Part shown: in pieces, positions 2,945 through 57,446 of the stretch | Layout of the letters: each line of letters begins with the position of its first letter | Position numbering within the stretch: the stretch's first letter is position 1 | From: a virus | IMG/VR virus record: IMGVR_UViG_3300042896_000714 | Location: 38,341-102,340 of that record | Length of the DNA: 64,000 nucleotides | Strand: one strand, 5' to 3' | Translations under genes and position numbers: made by a program | Notes under the pieces: model-generated | Database searches by the model: none | Seen by the model: the letters and a program-made list of their open reading frames with translations, nothing else | Told to the model about the DNA's origin: nothing

Positions 2945-2965
2945 ACTGTTACTCCGTTACAGTAT

Positions 2966-14392: not shown

Positions 14393-14492
14393 GTTAACTC
14401 CATTTACCATATTTACCGAAAAACAGAGCAATACTGACTAGCGTACTCTGTAATGTTTAGGGGATTGTGTATTACTCTTTGTCAATTAAATA

Positions 14493-15260: not shown

Positions 15261-15316
15261 TGCTTATCTCGGTTATAGTTATATTTATGTGTCATTTTAT
15301 ATAATTCCTCTGCAAA

Positions 15317-22996: not shown

Positions 22997-23057
22997 AATT
23001 ACTCCATGTTCTTTATGTATTTACCTAAAGGTTCTATAAACTTAATGTAAATACTCG

Positions 23058-37219: not shown

Positions 37220-37225
37220 AGCGCA

Positions 37226-37399: not shown

Positions 37400-37902
37400 T
37401 AGTGTTCTCCGGTATCTTTAATAACTAACCAACCAAGTGTATGCAAATCTGCTTCAATTTCTTCAGTAACTTCACACTCACTAACAAATCCAGTATCACC
37501 TTTGTCTCCCATGCCACTGCAATACCAATCAATATAGTCGCCAGTTTGCTGCATATCAGCAACAATGCCGCCAGCGTGTCTCCAACTGCACGACCACGTT
37601 TGTTCTTTTAGTATTGTCCACATTTCACGCTTAATGAAATCGTTATTACACATTGCAGCATAAAGGTTTTGAGCGTACTGCTCACTGGTTCGGACTTTTT
37701 CAAGTATCCAATCGGTGGTACGCAAATCAAACTCCATGTTATTCTTTTGCCATGCAGGGTCAACTTCTTGTTGATCCGCTTGCTGGGCGAAGGTGTTGAA
37801 CATCATTAGAATATCGGGATCAAGTTCTTTACCGTCCTTGATGGCGTTTTTAATGTGCGATTCTTTTTGGAACGTGTTTCGTTCAGGACTTTTTGATATC
37901 AT
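37399..37902 (-). CDS. Hypothetical phage protein
   Basis: YAQNLYAAMCNN, WSCSWRHAGGIVAD, DYIDWYCSG; leaderless from TTGACA-17-TACAAT (37909-37937). Confidence 0.75.
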   Translation of the reverse strand: MISKSPERNTFQKESHIKNAIKDGKELDPDILMMFNTFAQQADQQEVDPAWQKNNMEFDLRTTDWILEKVRTSEQYAQNLYAAMCNNDFIKREMWTILKEQTWSCSWRHAGGIVADMQQTGDYIDWYCSGMGDKGDTGFVSECEVTEEIEADLHTLGWLVIKDTGEH

Positions 37903-37956
37903 AGTACTATTGTAATATAATTTATGCGCGATGTCAAGTAGTAGTTAAATACCCCT

Positions 37957-38955
37957 ATGCAATTCTCCTCCATACCATTTGATAAAATCACACGCTTCGG
38001 CCAGCAAACAATGCTTAACCGACCGCTGTTCTCAACTAGCTGGATACTAGGCAGGTTCTGCAATTATAACTGTTCATACTGTTGGCCGTATGCAAGATCT
38101 GACACTCTTGATTATCAACCATTGGACTTGTATAAAACCACAGTTTCTGAGATTAAAAGACAAGCTAGGATAAATGGCTTTACTGAATTTCATTGGTCAT
38201 TCAGCGGCGGTGAACCCACTGCATACAAACATCTACTAGAGCTAACTCGACATTTAGATGATGGGGCACAAACCCCGTATCAAAGTATTCATATGACTAC
38301 CAATTTATCGCCCAGCATTAACTGGTGGAAAAATTGGGCAGTATCAACGGAACTATTGCAACGCAGAAGCATCACTGCTAGCTTCCATGATGAGTTTGCT
38401 AAGGAGCAAGAGTTCGGTGATAAAATCATAGCATTGATGTATGAAGGTGTTCATGTTACGATTAATCAAGTCATGGTACCGGACACGTTTTATCAATTAT
38501 ACGATCGGCTTGAGCGATTTAAAAAGCGTGGAATTAACGTAACATTAAAGCCACAGAGCAACTCGACTGCGACTGCCATTGTAGACGGATATAGTGATGT
38601 CATGATGGGCTTGATGCGAGAATATGCAATACAACAATCGCACGGGATGGACTTGCATCAAATAGCATTATACGAAAAGGATGATACTGTACATTTTATT
38701 GATCAAGCAGAACGGTTTAATGCATTTGGGTTTAATAAATTCACCGATTGGGATTGTAATGCAGGATACCAGAGTGTTATAATAAAGGGTAACGAAATTA
38801 AACGCGGCTATAGTTGTCACGACATGCCTCTTGGTACATTAGATAGCGGATTTGAACTATTTAATAGCTCAAGAACATGTATAACCCCGAGCTGTGTAAG
38901 TTCAGCAGATTCAAAAATTCCCAAAAACAAACATGCACTTAATATCAATACATAA
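37957..38955 (+). CDS. Radical SAM protein with C-terminal Cys-rich (twitch-like) domain
   Basis: CNYNCSYC, FSGGEP, CNAG...C...CITPSC; TAAATA 5 nt before ATG. Confidence 0.92.
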   Translation: MQFSSIPFDKITRFGQQTMLNRPLFSTSWILGRFCNYNCSYCWPYARSDTLDYQPLDLYKTTVSEIKRQARINGFTEFHWSFSGGEPTAYKHLLELTRHLDDGAQTPYQSIHMTTNLSPSINWWKNWAVSTELLQRRSITASFHDEFAKEQEFGDKIIALMYEGVHVTINQVMVPDTFYQLYDRLERFKKRGINVTLKPQSNSTATAIVDGYSDVMMGLMREYAIQQSHGMDLHQIALYEKDDTVHFIDQAERFNAFGFNKFTDWDCNAGYQSVIIKGNEIKRGYSCHDMPLGTLDSGFELFNSSRTCITPSCVSSADSKIPKNKHALNINT

Positions 38956-39937
38956 CAATTGGCGGGATGAAGTGTTGCATATTGATTTAAATCTTGGCAA
39001 CTACTGTAATTATAAATGCTGGTATTGTTGGCCAGGATCAAATTACGGCACGCACAAATTTCCGAATTTAGAGATCATTAAACAAAACATCGCGCACTTG
39101 ATTAATTACTACAAGACGCATACTAATAAAAAAGTATTCGATGTGCATTTCTGTGGTGGCGAGCCCACTCATTGGCCAAAGCTTCCGGAATTTATTAAGT
39201 TTTTAAAAACAGAATTTAACTGTTTAATATCAATGACTTCCAACGGTTCTAAAAACTTAAACTGGTGGCAACAGCACGCCCAGCTGTTTAATCGAATTCA
39301 CATGAGCTGCCATCATGAGTTCGTAGAGATGGAATCATATCGAAAACTGTGTGATTACTTATACGAACAGCACGTAGTCGTAAGTGTATCAGTAATGATG
39401 GATCCAAATGCATGGGACAAGTGCATAGGATTAGTTGAATACTTCAAAAGAAGCCAACGGAAATGGACTATTCGATATGTCGAAATAATAGACAAAACTG
39501 TTAATTATTCGCCAGATCAATACTTAGTATTAAACAAACACAGAGCCAGGCGTGTTAATTTGTGGTTCTTTATTCGAAATAATAAACATTATACAAGTAA
39601 AGTAACGGCAATAGACAAAACAGGTAAAAAATATAAATTTAAAGATAATGAAATATTATTAAAAAAGCTCAATCAATTTAATGGTTGGGAATGTTCCGTG
39701 GGAGTGCATTGGTTAAATATCTCTATGACTGGCGTCATTTCAGGAACATGCAATCAAAAAATTTACGGACAATCGTATCATTATAACTTATACGATCCAC
39801 AATTTACAGAAAAATTTCATCCTACAATCAAACCGTCAATTTGCGAACAGGTTACGTGCGTGTGCAGCATTGAAACGGTTATGCCTAAACAGCTACTAGA
39901 AAAAACAAGAACAGTGATACCGATTTATGCAAATTGA
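38933..39937 (+). CDS. Radical SAM protein with C-terminal Cys-rich domain
   Basis: CNYKCWYC, CGGEP, CSVG...CEQVTCVC. Confidence 0.92.
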   Translation: MHLISIHNNWRDEVLHIDLNLGNYCNYKCWYCWPGSNYGTHKFPNLEIIKQNIAHLINYYKTHTNKKVFDVHFCGGEPTHWPKLPEFIKFLKTEFNCLISMTSNGSKNLNWWQQHAQLFNRIHMSCHHEFVEMESYRKLCDYLYEQHVVVSVSVMMDPNAWDKCIGLVEYFKRSQRKWTIRYVEIIDKTVNYSPDQYLVLNKHRARRVNLWFFIRNNKHYTSKVTAIDKTGKKYKFKDNEILLKKLNQFNGWECSVGVHWLNISMTGVISGTCNQKIYGQSYHYNLYDPQFTEKFHPTIKPSICEQVTCVCSIETVMPKQLLEKTRTVIPIYAN

Positions 39938-40529
39938 TCTACCACATTTACATTACTGGATGCAAGCAATTCGGCAAAGTCCAGATCCGATTAGAACGTT
40001 AGATGCGTTCTGGAGTGGGCAAATAAAAAGCAAAGAATGGTTAATTACACAATTAGCACCATTTATTAATAAACGAGTTAATGTGGATATACACGGCGGA
40101 TGGGTAGGGACGTTGGCTAGCATGCTGTTTCAAAGTTCAATTCCAGTAGACACGATTCGAAGTATCGATATTGACTATACTTGTGAAGCCACTTCGACTA
40201 TGATGAATATGGCTGAGGCATTAGTCGGTCGGTTTAAGGCTATAACTTGCGATATGTGTACTATCGAAAGTTATGCTGATGTTATTATCAATACAAGTTG
40301 CGAGCATATTACACAAGCACAATATGATCAATGGTTAAATGCCATTCCAAATGGTAGCTTAATCGTACTTCAAAGTAATAATTATAAAATACCAGAACAT
40401 ATTCGAAATGCCGATTCTATAGAAGAATTTATAGCACAGAGTGCTATAAATGTGTTATTTTCAGATTCATTAAAATTGCCACTATATTCCCGCTACATGA
40501 TTATTGGACGAAAATATGTTTCAGTTTAA
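39927..40529 (+). CDS. Putative class I SAM-dependent methyltransferase
   Basis: IHGGWVG glycine loop, SIDID, DVIINTSCEH, VLQSNN. Confidence 0.7.
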   Translation: MQIDLPHLHYWMQAIRQSPDPIRTLDAFWSGQIKSKEWLITQLAPFINKRVNVDIHGGWVGTLASMLFQSSIPVDTIRSIDIDYTCEATSTMMNMAEALVGRFKAITCDMCTIESYADVIINTSCEHITQAQYDQWLNAIPNGSLIVLQSNNYKIPEHIRNADSIEEFIAQSAINVLFSDSLKLPLYSRYMIIGRKYVSV

Positions 40530-41601
40530 TGAATTACAAACACTGCATGTCGAACTAACGTCTAAATGCCAAGCAAAATGCCCCATGTGCATCAGAAATT
40601 ACCATGGTGGAATTATAAACCCAAATTTAAAATTAACTGATATATCAATTGACGAATTTAAAAATATTATAACTTGCAAGGTTTTACAACAAATAAGAAA
40701 TATCTACTTTTGTGGCAATTATGGTGATCCCATAATGTCAAATCATTTAATTAGTATTGTCCAGTACTGCGTGGAAATCAATCCATCGATTGAAATAAGT
40801 ATACACACTAACGGCAGTGCAAGATCTAAAGAGTGGTGGGAGCTCCTTGCGCATTCCCTGCCAAAATTTCATAAAGTTCACTTTGCATTAGACGGGTTGC
40901 GTGATACACATCACTTATATCGAATTGGTACGCATTTTGAGACTATTATAGAAAATGCTAAGGCTTTTATAAAAGCTGGTGGGCTAGCAGAGTGGACATT
41001 CCTGTCGTTTGATCACAATCAACATCAAATAGAAGAGGCTCGGCAAATGGCAAAGCATCTCGGATTTTCTAATTTTTCGCACAAGGCAACTAGCCGATTT
41101 GTAGCTACACCATGGTTTGATGTTTTGGATAAAACTGGTAACGTAGTGTATAAAATTAAACCTGCTACTGAACATGTTTTGAATTATATCGCCCCTGAAG
41201 TAATCAAGTCATATCGTAACCACTTTGATAACGCAGAGATTAAATGTAGAATACAAACAGACAAAAGCTTGTATATTGATGCAAATAAAATGCTGTGGCC
41301 ATGCTGTTGGATTGGGGCTATACCGTATAGTTATTCTCGATCAACTGATTTAGTATATCAATATCAGCAAGATCAATCAATGGCATTAACTAAATTAATA
41401 AATGACATAGGTGGGTATGCTACTATAGATCTACATAACCACTCTATTGAAGACATATTAAACAACCCAATATGGCAGAACATTTGGCAGGAGTATTGGG
41501 CAAAAAAGGAGCCTGGCACTTGCATTCGAACTTGTGGGATTTTTCCTAAAAAAATACTAAGCAATTTTGATGAGCAATGGATTAACACCGAATCATTATA
41601 A
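40516..41601 (+). CDS. Radical SAM/SPASM protein
   Basis: CQAKCPMC, CGNYGDP, HTNG, YIDANKMLWPCC, CIRTC; start moved to MFQFNE. Confidence 0.9.
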   Translation: MFQFNELQTLHVELTSKCQAKCPMCIRNYHGGIINPNLKLTDISIDEFKNIITCKVLQQIRNIYFCGNYGDPIMSNHLISIVQYCVEINPSIEISIHTNGSARSKEWWELLAHSLPKFHKVHFALDGLRDTHHLYRIGTHFETIIENAKAFIKAGGLAEWTFLSFDHNQHQIEEARQMAKHLGFSNFSHKATSRFVATPWFDVLDKTGNVVYKIKPATEHVLNYIAPEVIKSYRNHFDNAEIKCRIQTDKSLYIDANKMLWPCCWIGAIPYSYSRSTDLVYQYQQDQSMALTKLINDIGGYATIDLHNHSIEDILNNPIWQNIWQEYWAKKEPGTCIRTCGIFPKKILSNFDEQWINTESL

Positions 41602-42882
41602 ATGTGTAAAAATAGTTTTATAATTTGTACCGCGGGTAACATCATACAATTCTAATACACGGAGTCGTTCAGTAATGACCTCATCATAGTCATCTGGAGT
41701 TTCTTTTATGTATTCAATAATCGAAGCTAGTTGTTCTATCGCAGTAGGAGATTCATGTAAAATTGTAAGATCTTGCGTTTTTAAAAAAATTTCAATTCGA
41801 TCAGTAATAGTTGCGCGTTGGATTTTATTCAAATATCTTATAGAAAAATAATTAGGATCGTTAACTAAATTAACCTGTATGTGCAATGGTTCGTTGTATT
41901 GCTGTCTAATGCGTTCCCAAGAAGTGAATATAACTTCAAAATCAAATATATTAAAAATACTCCATGTAGTGGATAGTTTCTTTGTTATGTGTTTAAAGTC
42001 AAATACTGCGTGTAAATTTTTTTGAAATGTTTCATACACTGCCGGATATCGAATAAATTCAAATTTTTCTGGATCAACATGATCATAACTAATATATAAG
42101 TCAGTATGTTTAAATTTATTAAGATGTGTGAATACACGTCTATTGATTGCTGAAAGATTAGTAATGATAGTTAGTGAAATTGTTTCATTATATTGATTTT
42201 CAATGCAGTCTTCTAGTATTGCTGTAGTAAATGGATTAATCAATGGTTCACCACCCACTAATGATAGAAATTTTGCCGTTTTAAGACATGGCCTTAAATT
42301 ATTAATTGATTGCATAATATCAAGTATGTCTGATCTAAAATTTTGAGAATTTAAATCAAAGGATGCAACATGTGTTTCCCACTTAACTGCCATTGAAGGC
42401 AAGGAAATACCTTGAGATTTCCATGTATTAATTTCTTCTTGATGTAAACTGCTTGCACCAGCATAACACATAATACATTTTAAATTACACAATGTTCCTA
42501 TTTTTAAATCAACATCGACAGGTAACGATGATATTGTACCAGCATTACTAATGGCGTCTTGTATATATGAATCGTACGATTCATAAGATGACATATGTTG
42601 CTCATTATTTAAATTTCTTGGAGAATACATACCGTTTTCTTCTTGAGTTTTGCAATGAGCACAGTTAGATGGCCACTTGCCATCTAACATATCATTTCTG
42701 ATGGATTTGTAAGAATCTGAATTCCATACTTCGATAATAGAATTAGCACGAACATTGAATGTGATATTATTCGTATCCGTAATTGGCGTTAGTGATTGAC
42801 AACATACTCTGTAGGTTCCGTTGTTTAGCGTTGATATGTGTGTAAACGGTAATACACAGAAGGTTGGATATTTCTTTAGCAT
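41596..42882 (-). CDS. Radical SAM protein with N-terminal SPASM/twitch-like domain
   Basis: FCVLPF..VCC..NCAHC; CNLKCIMC; VGGEP. Confidence 0.92.
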   Translation of the reverse strand: MLKKYPTFCVLPFTHISTLNNGTYRVCCQSLTPITDTNNITFNVRANSIIEVWNSDSYKSIRNDMLDGKWPSNCAHCKTQEENGMYSPRNLNNEQHMSSYESYDSYIQDAISNAGTISSLPVDVDLKIGTLCNLKCIMCYAGASSLHQEEINTWKSQGISLPSMAVKWETHVASFDLNSQNFRSDILDIMQSINNLRPCLKTAKFLSLVGGEPLINPFTTAILEDCIENQYNETISLTIITNLSAINRRVFTHLNKFKHTDLYISYDHVDPEKFEFIRYPAVYETFQKNLHAVFDFKHITKKLSTTWSIFNIFDFEVIFTSWERIRQQYNEPLHIQVNLVNDPNYFSIRYLNKIQRATITDRIEIFLKTQDLTILHESPTAIEQLASIIEYIKETPDDYDEVITERLRVLELYDVTRGTNYKTIFTHL

Positions 42883-42886
42883 ATAG

Positions 42887-42901
42887 TATTTAAGTTAAAT
42901 A
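42887..42901. promoter_or_regulatory. Back-to-back TAAATA late-type promoters
   Basis: tattta 42887-42892 (minus strand, 4 nt before ATG) and taaata 42896-42901 (plus strand). Confidence 0.65.
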
Positions 42902-42918
42902 AATTACAAAAGGAATTT

Positions 42919-44343
42919 ATGAAAAAAATAGAAAAAGTTTATTGGTTACGCCCAATCGACTCGCAATTAGGAAAATGGCAGCAGCAAATTACTGACATTG
43001 CGAAATCGCCATCGTTTTGCGTGCTTCCTTGGATACACCTTGCTACGCGACCGAATGGCGATATGCGAATTTGTTGTGTTGCTAATGCAAGCGGTGCAGA
43101 GTCTGGTGACTATACTGTTGGTTTAGTGAAAAAAGAAAACGGAAGTCCTGCAAATTTTGGTTCTGACTTGCCTACTGAAGCATTTAATAGCAGTTACATG
43201 AAATCTGTACGTAAAACTATGATAGATGGCAATGTTCCGGCAAGTTGCCTTAAGTGCTATGAAGAAGAGGCGCAAGGAATTGCAAGTAAACGGATATGGG
43301 AAACTGGCACATGGCATTACGATGGTATTAATATTCCGGAATTAATTGCAAACACATCTGATGATGGTGAAGTACCTTACAAATTGGAGTATTTAGATCT
43401 TAGGTTAGGGCATACTTGCAATTTAAAGTGTATTATGTGTAGTCCCCATGATAGCAGTAAATGGGTGGCCGATCATAAAAAAGTATTTCCAATTTTTAAA
43501 AGTGATGTAATAAAAAAACAAATGTCATGGGATCGCAAAAATTTCAATAATTTTTGGCATGAAAATCCAGAGTTTTGGCGAGAAATATACGATCAAATTC
43601 CTAACTTAAAGCAACTCTACTTCGCCGGCGGTGAACCATTAATGATTCGAGAACACACATTGTTTTTAGAAGAGATTATTAAACGGGGATATGCTAGTAA
43701 AATTTCGTTACGGTATAATACAAATGGACTTTTGATCGACGATAGTATCATCGCCATTTGGAGTCAATTTCGCAAAGTTAAAGTCGGAGTAAGTTTAGAT
43801 GGAATGGGTGACCGTGTACACTACATTAGATATCCGACTAACTGGGAAATAGTGAAAGCCAATTTATGGAAACTGGATAATACACCTGACAATATACATT
43901 GTAATATTGCATTAGCAGTTCAAAATTTAAACATCAAGCATATACCGGAATTTATTAAATGGAAAGTGTCTAGTGGCTTTAAAAAATTAAACTTTGAAAA
44001 AAATGTTGCAGGCCAAACAAATGGCGGTGGATTGATAGGTGTACATTTGTTGTGGATTCCGACATGGTTAAGTCTTAGGGTCCTTCCTAAAGAAGACAAG
44101 GATGAAGTGCATCAATTATTTAATGATTTAAAAGATTGGTTATGGCTTAATTACACACAAGATGTTGAATTTTGGGAAACTAACCCATATGGGTGGAAAA
44201 GGTGGGAAGGTATTTTAGAATGGATGGATGCTGAGGATCATTCAAATTTATTACCCGATTTTCGTGATTATATATCAACAATGGATGCTCATCGAGGAAC
44301 GGATTTTAAAAAAACATTCCCAGAGATTGCGCATTTACTCTAA
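42919..44343 (+). CDS. Radical SAM protein with N-terminal SPASM/twitch-like domain
   Basis: FCVLPW..ICC..SCLKC; CNLKCIMC; AGGEP; YNTNG. Confidence 0.93.
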   Translation: MKKIEKVYWLRPIDSQLGKWQQQITDIAKSPSFCVLPWIHLATRPNGDMRICCVANASGAESGDYTVGLVKKENGSPANFGSDLPTEAFNSSYMKSVRKTMIDGNVPASCLKCYEEEAQGIASKRIWETGTWHYDGINIPELIANTSDDGEVPYKLEYLDLRLGHTCNLKCIMCSPHDSSKWVADHKKVFPIFKSDVIKKQMSWDRKNFNNFWHENPEFWREIYDQIPNLKQLYFAGGEPLMIREHTLFLEEIIKRGYASKISLRYNTNGLLIDDSIIAIWSQFRKVKVGVSLDGMGDRVHYIRYPTNWEIVKANLWKLDNTPDNIHCNIALAVQNLNIKHIPEFIKWKVSSGFKKLNFEKNVAGQTNGGGLIGVHLLWIPTWLSLRVLPKEDKDEVHQLFNDLKDWLWLNYTQDVEFWETNPYGWKRWEGILEWMDAEDHSNLLPDFRDYISTMDAHRGTDFKKTFPEIAHLL

Positions 44344-45360
44344 ATCAATTATTATGTCGTGTCCTATGTAAAAGTTAGGATACGACTTAACTGACTCAGA
44401 TAGCATCACATCAACGTACGATGCATGTAATGCATGTGTTGGGTTAGTAATATCCAACTTTGCAAGAGCAGAACCGGTGAACGTCCCCCATTCTTTTAAT
44501 TTTCCTAACTGTATAAATGGTAAATTACTAAATGTATTTGCAATAGTAATTAACGATGGGATTGTTGAAAATGTAGTTTCACTTACTAGCATTGACCACA
44601 CTACTTTAATATGTGGATTATTATCAGACAGATGTCGTAAATTTGCCCACAATGTGTCCCAATAGTTGCCGCGTATTGAAGTATATACTAGTTGAGAACC
44701 AGCAACCACGCTAACTGATATTAAACTAGTTTGTGCTAATATGTGGGCGTTGGCTTGCTGCCATTCTGCAGTCATTAATATACCTGAAGTAAATAATTGA
44801 AATTTAGTATTTGGCCATAGGTGTGGTTTTGTAAAAATATCTGAAGTTTTAAAGATATAATTCCACACTGGGCTTGCAATAAACTCACCCACGTTATCTA
44901 GTAATAATATTTTTTTCTGTAGGTGCGGTTCAGGAAAAAGTGCATCGAGTGTATTTTTTATTACATTGTGCATCACATTATATTGTTGATCTTTTGAGTT
45001 AACCAAGGTTATCTGTGATCGACAACCAACACATGCAAGATTACAACTATTATCAACATGAAACCTGATATATTGAGGTGTAGCTAGTGTTGCATTATTA
45101 TCACTCATTAAATTGACAATATGATGCGTAGCACTGTAATTTTGATAAAGTAAACAATTTTTCAAATTACATTTACGGTAAGAGTTGTCAATAATACCAC
45201 TTCGGATTGCAGTTGCCTCCAAGCTAAGCCAAATATCAGCAAGTGGTGTTTTTAATACATTACCGATTGACGCTGTCAATGATGACTCGCATAGGTATAC
45301 CTCTCCATCAGCATATATCTTTATATGAGAAAATGGCAGTTGGCATTTTAGTCTACTCAT
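44335..45360 (-). CDS. Divergent radical SAM protein with N-terminal SPASM-like domain
   Basis: CQLPF..DGEVYLC..IGNV..CNLKNC; CNLACVGC; GGEP replaced by NVGEF. Confidence 0.8.
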   Translation of the reverse strand: MSRLKCQLPFSHIKIYADGEVYLCESSLTASIGNVLKTPLADIWLSLEATAIRSGIIDNSYRKCNLKNCLLYQNYSATHHIVNLMSDNNATLATPQYIRFHVDNSCNLACVGCRSQITLVNSKDQQYNVMHNVIKNTLDALFPEPHLQKKILLLDNVGEFIASPVWNYIFKTSDIFTKPHLWPNTKFQLFTSGILMTAEWQQANAHILAQTSLISVSVVAGSQLVYTSIRGNYWDTLWANLRHLSDNNPHIKVVWSMLVSETTFSTIPSLITIANTFSNLPFIQLGKLKEWGTFTGSALAKLDITNPTHALHASYVDVMLSESVKSYPNFYIGHDIIIDLE

Positions 45361-46252
45361 TATTAGATTTCTTAAATTTAGTTAATGGTATGTCAGCGGC
45401 ACATGTACAGTAATTTCGATTGCATACTACTGGACTAGTAGGTGCATTAAAAGATCCTTGATATATATTGCCCAAGCTATCTCCAACTCGGCAAGTAGCT
45501 CGATGCACATCGCCGTCCCAATTAATCATTAAACTTTCAATGCCGGCATTGCAAGTCCAACCGTTGTACTTATTCATATGTAATTTAATTATGTCATTGG
45601 CGTGCATTATAGTATCTGCATCAATTACACAATTGCCCTGTACTGTAGTGTCATGCTCTTTAATCCACGTCAAGTCGTCAGGATTGTATCGCATGTCATC
45701 AAATAAGTCATGATCCCCTTCAGTCCAGCGTATGCGTCTAACTGTCGTCGGCGTGCCATCAGCGCCAAGTGCCCCGTGCACAGCTTTTAACTCTGCTATA
45801 TGATCAGCGTGTGCCATTAGTTGTGCTATAACCTTAATACTACTCATTGAGCCAACCTTCATTAGCGTATTACAAACACGCATCCAGTCATATTCAAAGT
45901 GTACGCTGCCTACCAATTGTTCTACTGGGAGGCTAATGTAAAACTCCGCAGGCAACGTTCCGTTAGTTGTTACACTAATCCAATTAATTCCCACGTGTTT
46001 GCAGTACATTAATAGTTCACGGAACTTAGGGTGTACAGTAGGTTCACCTCCTGTAAAACTAAGACGAATCGGCTTGCCTAGTGTTACGAGGTTATCCACT
46101 GCCAATTTAAGAATGTTTATATCTGTATGCGGGCTCGTGTTATCATGTATAGAAGAAGGACAATACGAACAACTGTAATTGCAACGCTTGCCAAGATTCC
46201 ATTCAACTTTAATGGAATTTTGATGAGGCCACCGGCTAGTTACGTTATACAT
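45353..46252 (-). CDS. Radical SAM protein with C-terminal Cys-rich domain
   Basis: CNYSCSYC, FTGGEP, TTNG, CNAG..DGDVHRATC..CNRNYCTC. Confidence 0.92.
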   Translation of the reverse strand: MYNVTSRWPHQNSIKVEWNLGKRCNYSCSYCPSSIHDNTSPHTDINILKLAVDNLVTLGKPIRLSFTGGEPTVHPKFRELLMYCKHVGINWISVTTNGTLPAEFYISLPVEQLVGSVHFEYDWMRVCNTLMKVGSMSSIKVIAQLMAHADHIAELKAVHGALGADGTPTTVRRIRWTEGDHDLFDDMRYNPDDLTWIKEHDTTVQGNCVIDADTIMHANDIIKLHMNKYNGWTCNAGIESLMINWDGDVHRATCRVGDSLGNIYQGSFNAPTSPVVCNRNYCTCAADIPLTKFKKSNNE

Positions 46253-47516
46253 ATGGTTTAAACTCTGGTGTTACATCTAAAAAACTTTGATTTCTAGTAA
46301 TATCTAGTCTGCGATTAAATTCTATACAGTCATTCCATTTCTCGCTTTGATCTCTTTGCAGATAGTTGATGTTATCTTGTATCTGACTCAGGGTGTACTC
46401 TAGTAGTTGTGGTTTTAACTTTATCAATTTAAAGTCTTTTATACGTAAACTAACTGATTGCAATCTTTTAATAGCTAAATCCCGTAATTCAAAAGGTAAT
46501 ACCTGTGCAGATAGCAACTTTGGATATTCTACACGATGTGAATGAAATATAATGCCCAAGTCATTGAGAAAGTACTCAATGATATCGCTTAAAATGAGAA
46601 CATTACTAACTTGTACGGTAACTGCCCCGACAATACGGCTAATATTTGGAATAGTTTGAATTTGTTTAATATTGTCGATGAGTGTTGCCCAACTAGCGTT
46701 ACCGCGGATATATTCATAGCTATCCCCGATACCGTCGATACTCACGTTGACTGCAACACTTTTAAATTTAGGCCAATATTCCCAAATAGTTCTGCTACCC
46801 TTTCCCAACATACTTAAATTAGTGGCATATTTAATTTCTATTTGGTGCCCATATGGTGCAAGCATATCCAAAATACGATAATGTTGTGGATCCATAAGCG
46901 GCTCGCCACCTGCAAATTCTACTCTTCTAAAATATGGCAGTAGTTTTTCTAAACTTTCCCACCATTTCGGATCGTTTTGAAATTTATCAAGAAATGGTCG
47001 GTTTTCTAAATTATGCTCTTCTACAATTGCATACATTATATTCCCTTCTTTTTTGTAAAAGTCCTTCACTTCGCCCCAGTCATTCCAGCTTGTGCTATCC
47101 ATCGGATGGCACATCCGACATTTTAGATTACACAAATTATTTAACTTTAATTCCATAGTAGGAATTTCAAACGGCATTGAAAAATCTGCTTGTAAGGAAT
47201 CTAGTGCGTTGGGATATAAGTTTATACGAGCTTCAGGAATCTTACCGGCAATGTGCCGCATACGTAAGCTTTCCACTCCTTGATCTTCTAAACTAAAACA
47301 TGGTTCACATTCTGGTGGTCGTGTGTTATTAAGAACTTGTTTTCGGATACGCTTCATTGTATCATTATTCCAAATTTCTTCTAACTTTTCTTTAGTAACA
47401 AATCCAACAGGGTGACTACGGCAACACGCACATATACCGCCATCTTCCCTGCTTGCTAATCCAGTAAATGGATGCATACAAAAAGTTTTACTTTGATTGA
47501 TCAATTGCCCACTCAC
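46245..47516 (-). CDS. Radical SAM protein with N-terminal SPASM/twitch-like domain (start uncertain, GTG or TTG)
   Basis: FCMHPF..ACC..ECEPC; CNLKCRMC; AGGEP. Confidence 0.92.
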   Translation of the reverse strand: MSGQLINQSKTFCMHPFTGLASREDGGICACCRSHPVGFVTKEKLEEIWNNDTMKRIRKQVLNNTRPPECEPCFSLEDQGVESLRMRHIAGKIPEARINLYPNALDSLQADFSMPFEIPTMELKLNNLCNLKCRMCHPMDSTSWNDWGEVKDFYKKEGNIMYAIVEEHNLENRPFLDKFQNDPKWWESLEKLLPYFRRVEFAGGEPLMDPQHYRILDMLAPYGHQIEIKYATNLSMLGKGSRTIWEYWPKFKSVAVNVSIDGIGDSYEYIRGNASWATLIDNIKQIQTIPNISRIVGAVTVQVSNVLILSDIIEYFLNDLGIIFHSHRVEYPKLLSAQVLPFELRDLAIKRLQSVSLRIKDFKLIKLKPQLLEYTLSQIQDNINYLQRDQSEKWNDCIEFNRRLDITRNQSFLDVTPEFKPYV

Positions 47517-47568
47517 TCTCTTTGCACAGACACATTCCTACTCCGTCGACTTTAATATTTGTTGTCAT
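47488..47568 (-). other. 26-codon mini-ORF MTTNIKVDGVGMCLCKESEWAIDQSK (peptide or deleted-gene remnant)
   Basis: Manual translation; start overlaps the end of the PLP gene and stop overlaps the start of the radical SAM gene. Confidence 0.45.
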
Positions 47569-48409
47569 TTTCTAAATACCTGATAAGAGGGCTTATACCT
47601 ACTGGTTGTCCTGCGTTTAACGCAAGATAAATGCTATGGGTGGGGGTTAAATTAAAATCAGCACAAATTTTATAGTAGTGACTGCTATATGTTTTCCACA
47701 AGTAGTCACTCGGTACATTCCGTAAAAAGTGTAACCCAATCATTACCAACACCCTATTATTCATATGAAAATCATTCATTATTGTGATACTATCTTGCTT
47801 GAATTGTCTACTCCAACGTAAGCCGATTCGGTTCCATCCTAGTCCGAGCCCTTTGCTTAAACTGATGCCAACGCTATGAATGGCAGGATGAAAAAAATCA
47901 AATACTATATCCTTACAACACGTGATCCATGCACCGTCTATATGTACTGGAATATTTTTAAGTAGACATTCATTTAATATCTCCGCCATATCAGTATGCA
48001 CTGCCCCAGTACTAGGAAATGGCATTGCAATAATCAATGGAATATTTGGAATTAATGAGCCAACATCTTTAAAGATGCATTGTTGTAATCTTTCGTGATA
48101 TTTGTAATCGGTTCGTAATACTTGGACTAAGCCATTCATATAAATCGCATCAATAAACTGAGTGCAGCCGATACAAATGTCTTTCCTTTCAAATTTATCT
48201 AAACCGGTTAATTTATTAACTGCAGAATTTAAAAGCCATTCTTCGCATTCTATTTTAAAGTCATTATATACATTATCACTTATATCCTTATTGATTTTTC
48301 CAGCTAATATATCTACGATTAGTGATTCTAAATAATTATCAGATAGCGGCTGCGGCCGATCGGTTTCTAACCATTGGCTAGTGTATGCTGGTGCAATTTT
48401 TGTTCTCAT
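47552..48409 (-). CDS. PLP-dependent enzyme (fold type I, aminotransferase-like)
   Basis: VHIDGAW, ISLSKGLGL (Schiff-base Lys), RIG. Confidence 0.8.
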   Translation of the reverse strand: MRTKIAPAYTSQWLETDRPQPLSDNYLESLIVDILAGKINKDISDNVYNDFKIECEEWLLNSAVNKLTGLDKFERKDICIGCTQFIDAIYMNGLVQVLRTDYKYHERLQQCIFKDVGSLIPNIPLIIAMPFPSTGAVHTDMAEILNECLLKNIPVHIDGAWITCCKDIVFDFFHPAIHSVGISLSKGLGLGWNRIGLRWSRQFKQDSITIMNDFHMNNRVLVMIGLHFLRNVPSDYLWKTYSSHYYKICADFNLTPTHSIYLALNAGQPVGISPLIRYLENDNKY

Positions 48410-48413
48410 AAAT

Positions 48414-48443
48414 TATTTACCTTAGTACACAAGGGCATAAATA
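48414..48443. promoter_or_regulatory. Divergent TAAATA late-type promoters, both leaderless
   Basis: tattta 48414-48419 (4 nt to minus-strand ATG) and taaata 48438-48443 (5 nt to plus-strand ATG). Confidence 0.65.
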
Positions 48444-48448
48444 TTTTT

Positions 48449-49123
48449 ATGTTAAAACAAACTCCATACTCAGTATCGAAGGCATTGCTAGATATAGCTG
48501 CAAATACTCCGCTGCTTTCTGATTTTAAAAATACAATAAATGCGCCGACTGGTAAATTCTTTTATGATAAATGGGAACTGTTACCTGTTTACAAAGGCAC
48601 TGTCTGGGAGGAAATTATGAATACACTTCCCGTTGACTGCGGCGAAGCACGTTTAATAAGACTTGGGCCAGGGACATGCTACAATAGTCATGCTGATATA
48701 GATGATAGATACCACTTAAACATAACAGGAAATTATTGTTACTTAGTTAATATAGACACTGCGTCTATGTATAAACTGATTAAAGACGGGATATGGTATG
48801 ACTTCAATGCAGGCCCACGTCACAGCGCTGTTAATTTTGGAGATGTACCCCGTACGCAGCTAGTAATTCGAAAATTATTAAAAAATAATACGTTGCAAGA
48901 CCCAGTTAATGTATCAATTATAGTAGAAAACATGCCATTATCCAATGCAAGGTATATTTTTGATGACACTGTTAGCTTATGGCTAAACCATGCAGTAAAG
49001 CAAGGAATATTGACTGGTTTCGATTATTCGAATAATGGCACGGTTTGTTTTACCGTAGAAAGATCGCATTTACATGAAGTTGCAACTATTTTACCAAAAG
49101 GGTTTATTTTAAATCATGATTGA
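48449..49123 (+). CDS. 2OG-Fe(II)/cupin oxygenase-like (Asp/Asn beta-hydroxylase-like)
   Basis: ARLIRL.PG.CY.SHADID.RYHL...RHSAVN...RTQLV. Confidence 0.72.
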   Translation: MLKQTPYSVSKALLDIAANTPLLSDFKNTINAPTGKFFYDKWELLPVYKGTVWEEIMNTLPVDCGEARLIRLGPGTCYNSHADIDDRYHLNITGNYCYLVNIDTASMYKLIKDGIWYDFNAGPRHSAVNFGDVPRTQLVIRKLLKNNTLQDPVNVSIIVENMPLSNARYIFDDTVSLWLNHAVKQGILTGFDYSNNGTVCFTVERSHLHEVATILPKGFILNHD

Positions 49124-49799
49124 CATTTCAGATTGGGGATTCTATAATAAAATAGATCCCGAAGATCTTACGCGATGTAAGACAAATTTATTATATACTC
49201 CCAGAGTCAGTCCAGACGGAAAATTGATGTGCATGGATTGGGATATCACTAGTCCGTATCAAAATGATGGAACTCGGTTGGATTATACAGAAGAATTGCT
49301 ACAATTCTTCTTTGATAAAGAAGTTCAGTTTTTAGAAAAATTTAAATATAAACCGTATGCTCCGGAAATTATTAGCATTGATATGGACCGCAAGCGTATA
49401 TTTTTTAAATGGTATGGCACCACTTGCAATGACATTGTATACTCTAAGGGGGAGTTAGCTGATAGCTCTCTTGATTGGCAAAAACAATTAACAACAATTA
49501 TTGAAGATATATTCATCGAAGGCAGTTATAAACTAAGTTTATATCCACATTGTTTTTACTTTGATGATAATAAAAAATTAAGAACTTTTGATTTTTATGC
49601 GTGTGCAAATAAAGACGATTGCCTAATAGAAATTGATAAAATCAAAGGCATGTTAGGACTCGGCTCAGTGACTAGATTTACAGAAGCAACTAAAAATAAT
49701 ATAATTGATTTTGGCATTTTCTTTAAACGGTCATTAGAACATCATATCAAGTGGCCCACTGAACCGCTGCATCAACTATACACAAAATTATATGAATAA
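49116..49799 (+). CDS. Protein-kinase-like fold protein
   Basis: FDKEVQFL..YAPEII..., L..FDFY (DFG-like); paralogue of 52416..53108. Confidence 0.55.
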   Translation: MIDISDWGFYNKIDPEDLTRCKTNLLYTPRVSPDGKLMCMDWDITSPYQNDGTRLDYTEELLQFFFDKEVQFLEKFKYKPYAPEIISIDMDRKRIFFKWYGTTCNDIVYSKGELADSSLDWQKQLTTIIEDIFIEGSYKLSLYPHCFYFDDNKKLRTFDFYACANKDDCLIEIDKIKGMLGLGSVTRFTEATKNNIIDFGIFFKRSLEHHIKWPTEPLHQLYTKLYE

Positions 49800-50328
49800 C
49801 ATTAATTGGGATGGAATAATTGCAAACTTAACATCACTCGAAGGAGAAACTGTTAGTACTGATGCTTCTCGGTGGAACATGGAAAATCTAGAATATTCAA
49901 AAATACACAATATGTGGAAAGAGGCACAGTTTAATGAAGCTGCAATGAAATGGACTAACTATTATCCTGGCAAACATTTTTCCGAAGATATTGTTAATGC
50001 AGTTGCATCTGAATTAAATTTAGTAGTTTTTAGATCTTGGATTAGCAGAGTTGATCCTGGGTTTTTTGCACCTTGGCACTGGGACGTTGATGATCACGAA
50101 GAAGAATATTTAAAAGTTGCTCCGATTGTTCGATATAGCTGTTTTATCACCCCGCCGCAAATGGGTCATATTTTTATATTAGGAGATGCATATTACTTTA
50201 AACAACCACAGGGCACACTACTGCGGTGGAATACTTATAGAGATTGGCACACTGGGATTAATGCTGGATTAAAGCCAAAATTTATGTTTCATATTGTGGG
50301 CCATCTACGTAATATGCAAAATACCTAA
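49792..50328 (+). CDS. 2OG-Fe(II)/cupin oxygenase-like
   Basis: WISRVDPG..APWHWD...WHTGIN...KFMF. Confidence 0.7.
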   Translation: MNNINWDGIIANLTSLEGETVSTDASRWNMENLEYSKIHNMWKEAQFNEAAMKWTNYYPGKHFSEDIVNAVASELNLVVFRSWISRVDPGFFAPWHWDVDDHEEEYLKVAPIVRYSCFITPPQMGHIFILGDAYYFKQPQGTLLRWNTYRDWHTGINAGLKPKFMFHIVGHLRNMQNT

Positions 50329-50862
50329 ATTATCATTTATTTTTTGAATTGTGTAATCAGTCAATTTTAATTCAAAATTAAATTGGGTTATACGTGGATT
50401 ATTTAACCACCATGCAATTGTGTCAATTACCTCTGAATATAATATAGGCAAGTCTGTGCTTACTGCATCTTCTAGCATGGATAGTTTTAAAAATACAATA
50501 GTAGTTAGTGGATTTCGACTAATCTCCAGACATCGATGTTCAAGTATATGACTGTTATATGCATATGATTTATACTCTTCATTAATTAGATCAAACATAT
50601 CCCCTGCAACGGAGCCCATAGTAATTGTCTTACCCACTAAGTTGTAGGTTTTATTTAACAATGTGAGTTGCGCATTACTGACTGCAGCATTGTTAATAAA
50701 CAAATCTGCCCCTTTAATAATTTCAATTGCATCATCAATGTCAGTTAATAAATTGATACCAGTTGTTCTCGAAATTCCAATAACTTCCCAACCTTGCGAC
50801 TTGAAATAAGTGAATAGTGCTTTACCTAATCCAGTGGTATGCCCAGTTATTACACATTTCAT
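50305..50862 (-). CDS. Short-chain dehydrogenase/reductase-like NAD(P)-binding protein
   Basis: VITGHTTGLG, GISR, DLFINNA, ITMGS; canonical YxxxK is degenerate. Confidence 0.78.
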   Translation of the reverse strand: MKCVITGHTTGLGKALFTYFKSQGWEVIGISRTTGINLLTDIDDAIEIIKGADLFINNAAVSNAQLTLLNKTYNLVGKTITMGSVAGDMFDLINEEYKSYAYNSHILEHRCLEISRNPLTTIVFLKLSMLEDAVSTDLPILYSEVIDTIAWWLNNPRITQFNFELKLTDYTIQKINDNLGILHIT

Positions 50863-50911
50863 ATTTTACCGCCATACTAATAAGTCGTATTTATCGAATA
50901 AATAACTGCAT

Positions 50912-51544
50912 ATGATTAATAAAACTGTTATTAAATTAAATTTTTCGATAGATATCACACTAGTTAAACAATACTATGAAACGCTAATTAAAGACTTCTC
51001 TCATAAACGATGGGTAGTTGGAGAACAATTGCAATATATTAGCGCAGGTCGGGCAGAGTTATCACAACTAACAGATGATGCAGCATTGCGGGATGTCACC
51101 ATGCAATTATCTGGTTGGGGTATTTTGGACTATACTGATAATGACAGCCAAATCATGCCACCATGGGGTATCACTACTGGTGTAGGGTGTATTCGAAAGA
51201 AGAGTGATTTAGAATTTGGAATTGCTGCTGAATTAATTAATAAAATACCAGGAGTTCGCCGTGCTGCGTTGTCAGTTATCCCAATGGGTGCAGAAATCAT
51301 TAAACATTCTGATGAAGACATGGTAATTCATGTTCCGTTATATTCGCCAGTAAACTCTAAATTTATCTTTCACGATCCAGACTACACAGAGTATACATTA
51401 GATGCTGACGGATCAGTATATCTATGCGACACTAGAATCCCACATGAAGTAAAAAATCAAGGACCAGGTGATCGCGTACATTTATTTCTGTTTGTTGATC
51501 CTAATATACTAACCACTGATATTCTTACAAGAACAGTGTTATAA
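50912..51544 (+). CDS. Asp/Asn beta-hydroxylase-like 2OG-Fe(II) oxygenase
   Basis: IIKHSD..IHVPL..DGSVYLCDTRIPHEVKN..RVHL; TAAATA 50899-50904. Confidence 0.78.
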   Translation: MINKTVIKLNFSIDITLVKQYYETLIKDFSHKRWVVGEQLQYISAGRAELSQLTDDAALRDVTMQLSGWGILDYTDNDSQIMPPWGITTGVGCIRKKSDLEFGIAAELINKIPGVRRAALSVIPMGAEIIKHSDEDMVIHVPLYSPVNSKFIFHDPDYTEYTLDADGSVYLCDTRIPHEVKNQGPGDRVHLFLFVDPNILTTDILTRTVL

Positions 51545-51545
51545 A

Positions 51546-52361
51546 TTAGTAAAAATCTAAATGATTTACTCCTAATTTTTTTCTAAATTCTTCAGTAAAT
51601 TTACCGTCAATGCGTAAGCTATAACTCTGCTCCATAATTTTCTCACCACCGTGCCAGTCTTGATCATTAAACCACGCTGCACGCGTATTTAAATAAATCT
51701 TATTTTTGGTATCTGGGTCCCATATGTAAAATGCTTTCTTAGTATTGGGTCGAATGTGAATAAATTCATTACGATGTGCCGTGTACTCGCTGTCGCCTAA
51801 TATACCGTGCACGTCCTCACCTAGATCTCGATGCTCAAAAGCTAAGCCGTCAGCCTCTAAATGAAATATTAGCACCCGTCCAATATATTCAAAAATATTA
51901 TTAGATACGAGCTTCTCAACCCAACTAACTAATTCTGGAAAATGCTCAGCTTCAGAAGTCAGTTTACGGGGAGTTGTTCGATCCGACCAGGACCCTTCAC
52001 CCCAGAGGAAGTAATATACATATGGGTCATAAGCCCCCATTGCGTGCTTAACATATCGTGTAAATTTATTCCGTTGTTTAAAATTTCCGAAGTCTTTATA
52101 TAGCGGCATTCCTTCAACTTTAATAGGATGATCATCTGGTAACTGCAAAAATTCTTCAATTGCCTTGTATACTGGTTTAAAGTTTACCGTATAACTCATA
52201 GCATCAAATTTAAAACCGGGCCGCATCCACGTACCCTCTTTTGCAAACTCGCGTGCCTCAGCAAATCCACGATAAATCTTTGATTGCATTGCATCAAATT
52301 CAACCATATCGAGATATGGCTCAATGTTTATATATGCTTGATTGTTTATACCTTTGATCAT
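51546..52361 (-). CDS. 2OG-Fe(II)/cupin oxygenase-like protein
   Basis: GRVLIF..FEHRD..FIHI..FNDQDWHGG..YSLRIDG; start moved to MIKGINN. Confidence 0.62.
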   Translation of the reverse strand: MIKGINNQAYINIEPYLDMVEFDAMQSKIYRGFAEAREFAKEGTWMRPGFKFDAMSYTVNFKPVYKAIEEFLQLPDDHPIKVEGMPLYKDFGNFKQRNKFTRYVKHAMGAYDPYVYYFLWGEGSWSDRTTPRKLTSEAEHFPELVSWVEKLVSNNIFEYIGRVLIFHLEADGLAFEHRDLGEDVHGILGDSEYTAHRNEFIHIRPNTKKAFYIWDPDTKNKIYLNTRAAWFNDQDWHGGEKIMEQSYSLRIDGKFTEEFRKKLGVNHLDFY

Positions 52362-52415
52362 AAAATTTTGTTTCCTGTTGTGTATATAGATATATATCTG
52401 TATTAAGGATGGATT

Positions 52416-53108
52416 ATGAAATTTCAATACTACTGGAATAATGTTCCGGGACACGGGCAATGCCGAAATAATTTAATTTATACCAGTTTAATATCAGAAG
52501 ATGCTAATACATTCGTGCAATGGTACTTTAATGATATCGGTTATCATAAAGCGCAAAATCAAGTAGTTGATTCAGATAAAATGGACGAGAAATGGCATCG
52601 TGAGATAAAATATCTCACACTAATGCAACGGACCTATCCAGAGTTAGTTCCTGAAATAATTAACATTGACTACATCTCTAAAAAAGTTTATCTTAAAATA
52701 GACGGTCCTGATTTTTGGGAACAATCTGGATGCACGATTGAAAATTATAGTAAAGTATTACCAGACTGGGAAGATCAAATGCTAGCTATTGTAAAAGCAC
52801 ACAAGGATTTGGGATTATTTAAATACAGCATGCATCCTAGTAGCTACTTCATAGTAAATGGTAAATTAAAAAGTATCAATTACTTTTTTACTTATGATAA
52901 AAATGACATACCAATAAGTATATCAGATGTTGAAAGTCATATATACACAACCCGGCAATCAGAAATGCGCAAGCATATTAACAAATTGGGTGTTGAATGG
53001 GATACTCCGCAATCGTTTGAAGTGCTAGAACAACTATGCTGGGCAAGCTTTAGTACAAACTATCCAGCCAGTTTTATAAAAAAAGTAACTGCAATGATCG
53101 GTTCATAA
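52416..53108 (+). CDS. Protein-kinase-like fold protein
   Basis: NLIYT, REIKYL..ELVPEIINID, W..Q...I, KYSMHP shared with 49116..49799. Confidence 0.55.
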   Translation: MKFQYYWNNVPGHGQCRNNLIYTSLISEDANTFVQWYFNDIGYHKAQNQVVDSDKMDEKWHREIKYLTLMQRTYPELVPEIINIDYISKKVYLKIDGPDFWEQSGCTIENYSKVLPDWEDQMLAIVKAHKDLGLFKYSMHPSSYFIVNGKLKSINYFFTYDKNDIPISISDVESHIYTTRQSEMRKHINKLGVEWDTPQSFEVLEQLCWASFSTNYPASFIKKVTAMIGS

Positions 53109-53109
53109 T

Positions 53110-53673
53110 ATGTATAAAATAATACCATGGTCGCCTGATATTGATTTACGTGAATTTTATAAAACGGCAACAACGAGGGGGTTTATTAATAACGCAAGTC
53201 AAAAAATGCTAGTTGATAGTATTTCAAATGAAAAGGAATGGCGCGTTTGGATTCTTTATTATAATACTATTGCCGTAGGAAGTGTTGCAGCGCATACCTT
53301 TCCAGAAATGGGAGATAACGCATACCGAATTGCGGCCCGGACCTGTGTATTTACTGATCAGTTACCTGGCTGCTACGGTAGTGCACTAAGGACAATAAGT
53401 GTTATTACTAAACATCAAAACCCCACAGCGCAGTTTTTAATTCCAGTTTGCATAAATTGGGCACCGATTGGTTCAAAATTGTATATTACATCCAACGAGA
53501 GTGCAATTGGCACTCAACGATTGGTTCATAAAATATTTGGGCCAGCGTTGGAAAAGAAAGGCATAATGAAACGTATTAATAATATGGTTTATAGAGGAAC
53601 ATCCCAAACAGTCTGGGAGGTTTTTCCTGATGCATTCTTTAACGATTTAGCAAAATATCCCACGTGGAGTTAA
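53110..53673 (+). CDS. Putative GNAT-like acyltransferase
   Basis: WILYY...VGSVAAH...YRIAARTCV and LYITSN pattern resembling the GNAT fold; weak. Confidence 0.45.
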   Translation: MYKIIPWSPDIDLREFYKTATTRGFINNASQKMLVDSISNEKEWRVWILYYNTIAVGSVAAHTFPEMGDNAYRIAARTCVFTDQLPGCYGSALRTISVITKHQNPTAQFLIPVCINWAPIGSKLYITSNESAIGTQRLVHKIFGPALEKKGIMKRINNMVYRGTSQTVWEVFPDAFFNDLAKYPTWS

Positions 53674-54719
53674 CCTAATGTTGCCCATGCTGTTCCATTC
53701 CATCCTTGAAAGGTGCTTGATGTAGTTTCAAATATAATTTGACCTGGACTTGCACTCAATGGTCGAGTGTCAGGTAATGTTGTGTATGCCCCTACTTGAA
53801 TAATTGGAGCTGCCAAAATACCGTTGCTATCAAAACTCATAACATTATGAGCGGACCCAGTTGCATTCATTGTCAGAAAGTTCAATCGACCAGGTACTTG
53901 ATTATTAATTACATTCCCATCAGCTGCTCCCCTTATTCCTATTGATGGGTTAAATGATGTACCATTGTAAGTTTGAAATACGATACCACCTAATACATCA
54001 TTATTAATAATGGGTGTAGGTGCTGCTAATGATGTGTTTGCTGTAAATAAATCAATAAATGCGGAGTTTGGCCCGGATATATTGCTTAGTTCCAATGCAG
54101 GGCCCGTTTGATTTGAAACAGTAATAGTACTATCTAATTGACTTGCCCCTGCTGTAATATTTCCTAAGATACTTATAGAACCAGTTCCTGTGATACTATG
54201 AAGATTTAAATCTAAGTTACCACCAAGTATAGGAGTTGGATCATTACCTACAGTTGCTAAGTTAGCCATTATGCGATTGGACCAAGAAGTGCCATCGTAT
54301 GCCAACACTTGATCGATAACTGGGTTTGCAATGGCTACATCCGACAGTCCATCTAATGCTAGTATTACTGTAGTATTAGACCAAGAAGTACCGTCGTATG
54401 CCAACACTTGATCGATAACTGGGTTTGCAATGGCTACATCCGACAGTCCATCTAATGCTAGTATTACTGTAGTATTAGACCAAGAAGTACCGTCGTATGC
54501 CAACACTTGTCCGTTAAGCTGAGTCGTCAATGTGACATCAGTCAATTCATTAAGTGTCGTGGCGCCAGTGATCCCTGATCCCGTAGTTGTGTTGCCACCG
54601 GCAGTGGTGCCGTCACCTGTAAATAACTGTTTAAGTTGTGTGTCGTAAATTAACTCGCCAATTTTTGGAACAATTAATAATCGTTCAGCAGTATTTCCCC
54701 TGCGTAGTTGCAATGCCAT
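53670..54719 (-). CDS. Tail-fibre-like protein with Mtd-type N-terminal domain
   Basis: LQLRRG...GELIYDT...L..GDGTTAGG; QVLAYDGTSW repeats; exact TATAAATA at 54753-54760 and AGGAG RBS. Confidence 0.8.
   Translation of the reverse strand: MALQLRRGNTAERLLIVPKIGELIYDTQLKQLFTGDGTTAGGNTTTGSGITGATTLNELTDVTLTTQLNGQVLAYDGTSWSNTTVILALDGLSDVAIANPVIDQVLAYDGTSWSNTTVILALDGLSDVAIANPVIDQVLAYDGTSWSNRIMANLATVGNDPTPILGGNLDLNLHSITGTGSISILGNITAGASQLDSTITVSNQTGPALELSNISGPNSAFIDLFTANTSLAAPTPIINNDVLGGIVFQTYNGTSFNPSIGIRGAADGNVINNQVPGRLNFLTMNATGSAHNVMSFDSNGILAAPIIQVGAYTTLPDTRPLSASPGQIIFETTSSTFQGWNGTAWATLG
54280..54509. repeat. 99-bp tandem repeat (~2.3 copies) inside the fibre gene
   Basis: Units start at 54280, 54379 and 54478; encode ILALDGLSDVAIANPVIDQVLAYDGTSWSNTTV; nearly identical DNA. 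Confidence 0.95.
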
Positions 54720-54807
54720 ATATAACTCCTGGTATGTTTACCGTCTTTGTTATATTTATACTTTTGACAAAGTAATTACGATTGATCGATAGCATCGTTA
54801 CGAAATT

Positions 54808-55286: not shown

Positions 55287-55289
55287 ATG

Positions 55290-55631: not shown

Positions 55632-55646
55632 AATATTTTACTTTCA

Positions 55647-57438: not shown

Positions 57439-57446
57439 TATATCTC

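Follow-up and report, generated by a model that had tools for sequence, protein, structure and literature searches.

The 64,000-nucleotide (nt) stretch analysed here (the window) covers bases 38341-102340 of the linear IMG/VR record IMGVR_UViG_3300042896_000714 (102,340 bp; CheckV completeness 27%), itself only a fragment of the genome of an uncultured freshwater giant phage. It contains an enzyme island of about 19 genes on both strands, arranged in roughly 10 short transcription units (37957..53673). We found that at least seven of about ten unit heads in this island carry a TAAATA box of their own, as an earlier note on this DNA had claimed for most of them, and that these boxes probably act as minus-10-only promoters read by host RNA polymerase together with a phage gp55-like sigma factor. 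The regulatory element is already known in kind from the late boxes of phages T4 and CBB. Its start-codon-fused, predicted leaderless form, which is concentrated in the island, appears to be a variant absent from the literature searched.

TAAATA is the leading upstream motif in the record and its relatives

For the record under study (G000), hexamers were counted in the 60 nt upstream of 134 mechanically called starts, with the expectation taken from the genome-wide frequency. TAAATA ranked first with 24 occurrences against 4.0 expected (z 9.9), and its fold enrichment exceeded that of all 14 other hexamers of identical base composition. Intergenic DNA contained 8.1 copies of it per kb and coding DNA 0.89, a 9-fold difference. 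Results were similar in 80 related viral contigs (1.37 Mb, 1994 open reading frames), which were retrieved through the 403-amino-acid (aa) protein 25649-26860 at 45-72% identity: TAAATA again came first, with 356 observed and 41.9 expected, above the Shine-Dalgarno hexamers. The genome-wide enrichment check that the earlier note had proposed thus came out in its favour, and every TAAATA site it had listed was present and directed at an adjacent start codon.

Two relatives were used for most comparisons. G001 (212.5 kb) is collinear with the record, with 61 of 135 proteins matched and the order the same. G006 (331.6 kb, 93% complete) bears a homologous enzyme cluster and likewise has TAAATA as its top upstream hexamer. 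Because G006 has both a major capsid protein and a portal of the T4 type (PF07068, E 4e-82, and PF07230, E 2e-110, respectively), the phage is assigned, on this relationship, to the distant T4-superfamily jumbo phages. Neither 37000-55000 nor 55000-64000 matched any cultured phage in Megablast searches, and a search for RNA sequencing runs holding 37500-47400 listed none. The structural region of G006 also contains open frames of 4660, 3591 and 4437 residues (96779-110761, 140648-151423 and 158801-172114).

Box-to-start spacing falls into two classes

In the related contigs, the distance between box and start codon (N, in nt) was bimodal, with sharp peaks at N4-5 in 18 protein families and at N18-23 in 48 protein families. 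We refer to N4-5 as class I and to longer spacings of about N16-25, with a Shine-Dalgarno sequence in a short leader, as class II. In T4 the late box occupies positions -13 to -6 (PMC2988020), so N5 places the A of ATG at +1. On this geometry class I genes should give leaderless mRNA, and class II genes should have a leader of about 13-18 nt holding the Shine-Dalgarno sequence. Class I start codons were ATG in 115 of 118 cases, the genes had no Shine-Dalgarno sequence, and the short spacing was kept among orthologues (52 of 67 for the 95-aa gene 23058-23345). The conserved element was (A)TAAATA, the A preceding TAAATA in 62% of class II families; no conservation was seen upstream of it.

Sigma70-type promoters in these phages also showed two spacing classes. 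The short one lay at N5-6, the one-nucleotide shift that is expected from the -12 to -7 position of the sigma70 box, and this internal control supports the leaderless reading of class I. Several early sigma70 promoters lie 5-6 nt from an ATG, at 57998-58026, 9997-10025, 2544-2572 and 37909-37937, all on the minus strand; the last (TTGACA-17-TACAAT) serves the leftward gene 37399-37902, with its -10 element 6 nt from the ATG in leaderless geometry. The predicted leaderless design is therefore not confined to late genes. Among TAAATA boxes, the 102-kb record has five N4-5 sites, four of them within the cluster, so that class I geometry occurs in 4 of 19 cluster genes and in 1 of 115 genes elsewhere in the record (Fisher p 0.0014). 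In full-text literature searches, no paper was found that connects leaderless mRNAs with late promoters of the T4 type.

Most unit heads of the enzyme island carry their own box

The island encodes eight radical SAM proteins, three of which are of the full-length N-terminal-twitch type (Pfam; NCBIfam). These three (41596-42882, 42919-44343 and 46245-47516) match NF033640 over their full length at 277, 398 and 324 bits, above the curated cut-off of 170; this family has no assigned substrate, and here it is found expanded and under phage late-type promoters. Also encoded are Asp/Asn-hydroxylase-like cupins and kinase-like proteins, together with an SDR fragment and a number of unknowns. Language-model and fold look-alikes suggested that these unknowns include one hydroxylase-like and one kinase-like protein, which we treat as leads only. 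PHROG and Pfam scans of the core unknowns 49116, 49792, 51546, 52416, 53110, 47552 and 39927 gave no family, and the same scans gave none for the flanking genes or the eight plus-strand genes at the left end of the record.

Eight TAAATA boxes lie in the 357 bp of intergenic DNA of the island, and all eight are correctly oriented toward the neighbouring start. The box at 37946..37951 (+) stands at N5 before ATG 37957 of the first radical SAM gene, a class I head predicted to be leaderless, and the conserved N-terminus in orthologues identifies this ATG as the real start. Two boxes stand back to back within a 36-bp spacer. That at 42887..42892 (-) lies at N4 before ATG 42882 of an N-twitch radical SAM gene (class I), a start supported by the NF033640 model alignment, which begins at residue 6; that at 42896..42901 (+) lies at N17 before ATG 42919, preceded by an AAAGGAA Shine-Dalgarno sequence (class II). 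The box at 48414..48419 (-) stands at N4 before ATG 48409 (class I), which heads the operon 47552-48409 / 46245-47516 / 45353-46252 / 44335-45360. On the other strand, the box at 48438..48443 (+) lies at N5 before ATG 48449 of the hydroxylase-like gene 48449-49123 (class I), which indicates that this gene starts at ATG 48449 and not at TTG 48374. The last pair comprises 50888..50893 (-), at N25 before ATG 50862 of the SDR-like gene (class II), and 50899..50904 (+), at N7 before ATG 50912 of an Asp/Asn hydroxylase-like gene, which is near class I.

G001 has neither the island nor the tail-fibre gene beside it in the interval bounded by the orthologues of 37399-37902 and 54808-55023, and on this comparison the whole stretch, fibre included, is a variable island. 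In six homologous clusters (L179-L184) the gene order was shuffled, and back-to-back N4-5 boxes were kept at divergent junctions. With an 8-bp promoter fused to the start codon, spacers of 36-49 bp would be enough for genes to be densely packed and rearranged in both directions, and such a promoter-start fusion may explain how islands of this kind vary between related phages. The resulting regulatory map marks which heads have late-type boxes, which are predicted to be leaderless and where early-type promoters intrude.

Convergent genes of the island overlap by a few bases with no intervening terminator (41596-41601, 44335-44343, 50305-50328 and 53670-53673), so that transcripts from the two strands should run into one another or pair in antisense. 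Terminator-like hairpins in the cluster were not above shuffles (11 vs 10.9).

Relatives encode a gp55-like sigma factor, and the box resembles that of CBB

The gp55-like sigma factor that the earlier note had suggested looking for is encoded in the collinear G001 and in the cluster-bearing G006, as full-length matches to phrog_12791 ('sigma factor for late transcription') at E 7e-76 and E 1e-87. The CBB sigma factor belongs to the same family (E 3e-161), which is carried by more than 600 related viral contigs, and the G001 protein shares 32% identity with T4 gp55 across 93 residues of the region-2 segment. The G001 sigma gene lies behind a sigma70 promoter, so TAAATA-dependent genes should be expressed later than the early phase. 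TAAATA in G001 precedes genes for a baseplate wedge, a tail fibre, a tail-spike-like protein, a virion protein and two endolysin-like proteins; sigma70 matches of at least 11/12 precede those for an HNH nuclease, two AAA ATPases, an exonuclease, a lipoprotein and the sigma factor. All 19 of the 19 strong sigma70 promoters of G001 lie on one strand and its TAAATA sites on both, the same strand-polarity rule as described for T4 (PMC2988020).

The favoured mechanism is as follows. Host RNA polymerase would read the TAAATA boxes by means of a CBB/Rak2-type gp55-like sigma factor encoded by the phage. The sigma gene itself would be transcribed from a sigma70 promoter, as in the collinear relative, and TAAATA genes would be switched on only once the early phase has passed. 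At four heads (37957, 42882, 48409 and 48449) the box lies 4-5 nt before the ATG, which would make the A of the ATG +1 and the messages leaderless, and the other island heads would have a leader of about 12-20 nt with a Shine-Dalgarno sequence. The comparative evidence supports the promoter reading of the boxes well, and late timing is a reasonable inference from it. Timing is one of the few clues to a large phage enzyme island that lacks a known substrate.

The boxes share with T4 late promoters a minus-10-only A/T box with a TAAATA core, a gp55-family sigma factor (in relatives), a position before fibre, baseplate and lysis genes, and occurrence on both strands beside sigma70 promoters of one polarity, in a lineage whose relatives have a T4-type capsid protein and portal. 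They differ in that T4 uses the full box TATAAATA at -13 to -6, whereas only (A)TAAATA is conserved here; the sigma factor of the relatives is about 90 residues longer than gp55; gp55 works with the gp33 co-activator and the gp45 clamp, neither of which was detectable here; and in T4 the distance from box to ATG is 13-34 nt, an N4-5 class being absent. The Rak2-like jumbo phages CBB and GAP32 come closer, since they have the 7-mer ATAAATA upstream of structural genes, reported as their putative late promoter motif (PMC5259590), together with a sigma factor of phrog_12791. TAAATA was also the top hexamer when CBB was put through the same upstream test; its spacing, however, is broad (12-54 nt) and has no N4-5 class. 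The cultured T4-like Pelagibacter/SAR11 phage HTVC008M shares a TAAATA peak at N5 in 10 genes and a predicted leaderless late layout, but it is one of the Kyanoviridae with a genome of 147 kb and TAAATA is not its top upstream hexamer. The PA5oct paper gives sigma70-like motifs only.

Sigma70-type matches point into or sit inside the island, and a tail-fibre gene adjoins it

The earlier note had found no consensus sigma70 promoter facing into the cluster, which does not hold. A TTGATA-17-TATAAT match (11/12) at 37893..37921 (+) faces into the cluster 36 nt before ATG 37957, and a perfect TTGACA-17-TATAAT (12/12) lies within it at 49120..49148 (+), inside codons 2-11 of 49116-49799 and in a 15-codon stretch without counterpart in homologues. 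Further 11/12 matches within the cluster stand at 49677-49705 (+) and 50398-50426 (-), so that three matches of at least 11/12 fall within 1.3 kb (49.1-50.4 kb), against about 0.07 expected. Perfect matches numbered eight against 0.19 expected per genome, and matches of at least 11/12 numbered 23 in the genome against 5.2 in random genomes, most of them directly before genes.

The gene at the right edge of the island (53670..54719, minus strand) encodes a 349-aa tail-fibre-like protein with an Mtd_N-type N-terminus (Pfam Mtd_N, phrog_9729) and tandem fibre repeats. Described earlier as Thr/Ser/Asp-rich, it is indeed rich in Thr (12.9%; Ser 8.0%), but its Asp content (5.7%) is ordinary. Its relatives in viral contigs amounted to only three weak matches. 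Among the homologous clusters, four have a visible edge, and a fibre is adjacent in one of them (L182, where the box stands at N34). The same edge is occupied by a methyltransferase gene in L180 and L183 and by a radical SAM gene in L184, the G006 cluster. The test for conserved enzyme-fibre linkage was thus negative, with a fibre adjacent in G000 and L182 only; the two fibres have only their first 33 residues in common, and no homologue of 53670-54719 was detectable in the 93%-complete G006. The L184 cluster includes a NodU/Nol-like carbamoyltransferase gene (1556-3031; phrog_1601, E 2e-99), and beside this cluster stands a homologue of one of the genes at the left end of the record.

Alternative explanations

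Several observations weigh against the boxes being gp55-type late promoters. The exact T4 8-mer TATAAATA, reported earlier at 54753, is present there, but it shows no enrichment (9.9 expected in the window, 4 seen), its two upstream bases being unconserved, and only the core (A)TAAATA stands. Some sites fall outside both spacing peaks, namely 50899 (N7), 54753 (N33) and those of some 37957 orthologues (N9-10). No TAAATA was found at the two heads (52361 and 52416) of the divergent junction 52362-52415; the heads of 51546-52361 and 52416-53108 have Shine-Dalgarno sites and no good sigma70 match. Profiles and tblastn with a relative's sigma factor found no gp55-like sigma gene on the 102-kb record, 27% complete, where tblastn gave noise only. 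The G001 sigma gene occupies 28-855, some 30 kb to the left of the first gene in common with the record, and by collinearity that of the record would lie beyond its left end. Scans for gp33 (phrog_254) gave no match in G000, G001 or G006, although this protein is small and divergent and a distant form could escape, and scans for the gp45-type sliding clamp (phrog_223) gave none in the same three genomes. With both undetected even in G006, the T4 activation mechanism is not simply to be assumed. The CBB authors likewise did not find gp33 and gp45 in CBB (PMC5259590), and on these grounds the system looks like a CBB/Rak2 variant rather than the full T4 apparatus. Finally, parts of the cluster could be transcribed early from the sigma70-type sites at 37893 and 49120.

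If the TAAATA sites were chance products of A/T-rich spacers, the A/T richness of intergenic DNA and the unenriched 8-mer would be accounted for, but neither the excess over the 14 hexamers of the same composition, nor the 9-fold intergenic density, nor two sharp spacing peaks, nor the retention of the box in orthologues at about 60% protein identity (as in the 95-aa gene) would follow. These composition, density, spacing and conservation controls refute a chance origin, to which we give practically no credence. The N4-5 copies sit roughly where a Shine-Dalgarno sequence would, in genes that have none, and might be A/T-rich substitutes for it, signals for translation initiation and not promoters. 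This is improbable, as TAAATA peaks sharply a second time at N18-23, in front of ordinary Shine-Dalgarno sites, sigma70 -10 boxes have the same short class shifted by one nucleotide, and back-to-back boxes in divergent spacers of 36-49 bp are each in register with their own gene although the distance between them varies from 3 to 24 nt. This variable distance is also the ground on which we rejected back-to-back boxes as a dyad operator. A different question is whether promoters at TAAATA are the only ones in use: the sites at 37893-37921 and 49120-49148, and also 49677-49705, may be live early promoters to which TAAATA only adds late expression, and timing would therefore be no pointer to morphogenesis. 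The excess of perfect and near-perfect matches, their position before genes and the group of three at 49.1-50.4 kb all speak for such dual control. However, a transcript from 37893 would have a leader of about 28 nt without a Shine-Dalgarno sequence before ATG 37957, the 49120 site lies within coding sequence downstream of its gene's ATG, about one fifth of 11/12 matches are expected by chance, and homologous clusters have TAAATA boxes at equivalent genes. We regard dual control as possible, if somewhat doubtful.

Taking the boxes as late promoters, the earlier note had gone on to propose that the enzymes decorate the virion during assembly, with the fibre 53670-54719 as the candidate substrate. 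As that note had said, the cluster does share a promoter-like box with fibre and lysis genes, and this box is conserved in the lineage; the cluster also lies with the fibre in one island that G001 lacks. L182 repeats the order of fibre, 187-aa, 230-aa and 271-aa genes, and peptides or proteins are frequent targets of Asp/Asn hydroxylase-like, SPASM/twitch radical SAM and protein-kinase-like folds. Against this stand the non-fibre genes at the cluster edge in L180, L183 and L184, the lack of a detectable fibre homologue in G006, which has the cluster, and the two cluster-adjacent fibres that are alike only in their first 33 residues. TAAATA also precedes both homing-endonuclease genes and, off-peak, QueD (N14) and endonuclease V (N15), so that 'late' does not mean 'morphogenetic' and the step from late wiring to decoration is unsupported. 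The SDR, APH/Kdo-kinase-like and carbamoyltransferase (L184) proteins fit sugar or small-molecule chemistry equally well. Modification of a virion protein, most likely this fibre, is accordingly an unlikely outcome in our view. A more specific version, which we offer as speculation of rather low probability, is that the island forms a maturation system, expressed late and mostly from leaderless messages, that would install modifications like those of ribosomally synthesized and post-translationally modified peptides on a virion surface protein, the modifications being swapped between related phages in promoter-plus-gene cassettes. The installers would be the twitch-type radical SAM, Asp/Asn hydroxylase-like cupin and kinase-like proteins, and the target the adjacent or another variable fibre. 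No firm conclusion on what the island enzymes modify follows from the promoter wiring, and a substrate should not be read from gene adjacency.

TAAATA boxes outside the island

The placement of TAAATA before structural and lysis genes, as claimed earlier, was confirmed for fibres and a holin-like gene at four sites. The box at 2963..2968 (-) lies at N18 before the holin-like gene 2573-2944, that at 15282..15287 (-) at N21 before the 255-aa fibre-like gene 14493-15260, and the exact TATAAATA at 54753..54760 (-) at N33 before ATG 54719 of the 349-aa fibre, followed by an AGGAG Shine-Dalgarno sequence. The fourth, 23018(-), belongs to a back-to-back pair (23018..23053, both strands) and stands at N21 before the gene for a 2559-aa tail fibre; its partner 23048(+) stands at N4 before the 95-aa gene 23058-23345. 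A further box at 14410..14415 (-) lies at N17 before the real ATG (14392) of a 1197-aa protein, the G001 orthologue having N19.

The boxes before the two homing-endonuclease genes lie at 28996-29003 (+), N36 before 29040-29885, and at 34824-34837 (+), N16-24 before 34854-35831. In this they resemble the late promoters known for some T4 homing endonucleases. In the divergent spacer 22997-23057 and in the orthologous spacers (L005-L084), most relatives have a conserved TTTTATAA..TAATG just upstream of the N4-5 box, and conservation at this spacer extends beyond the box itself.

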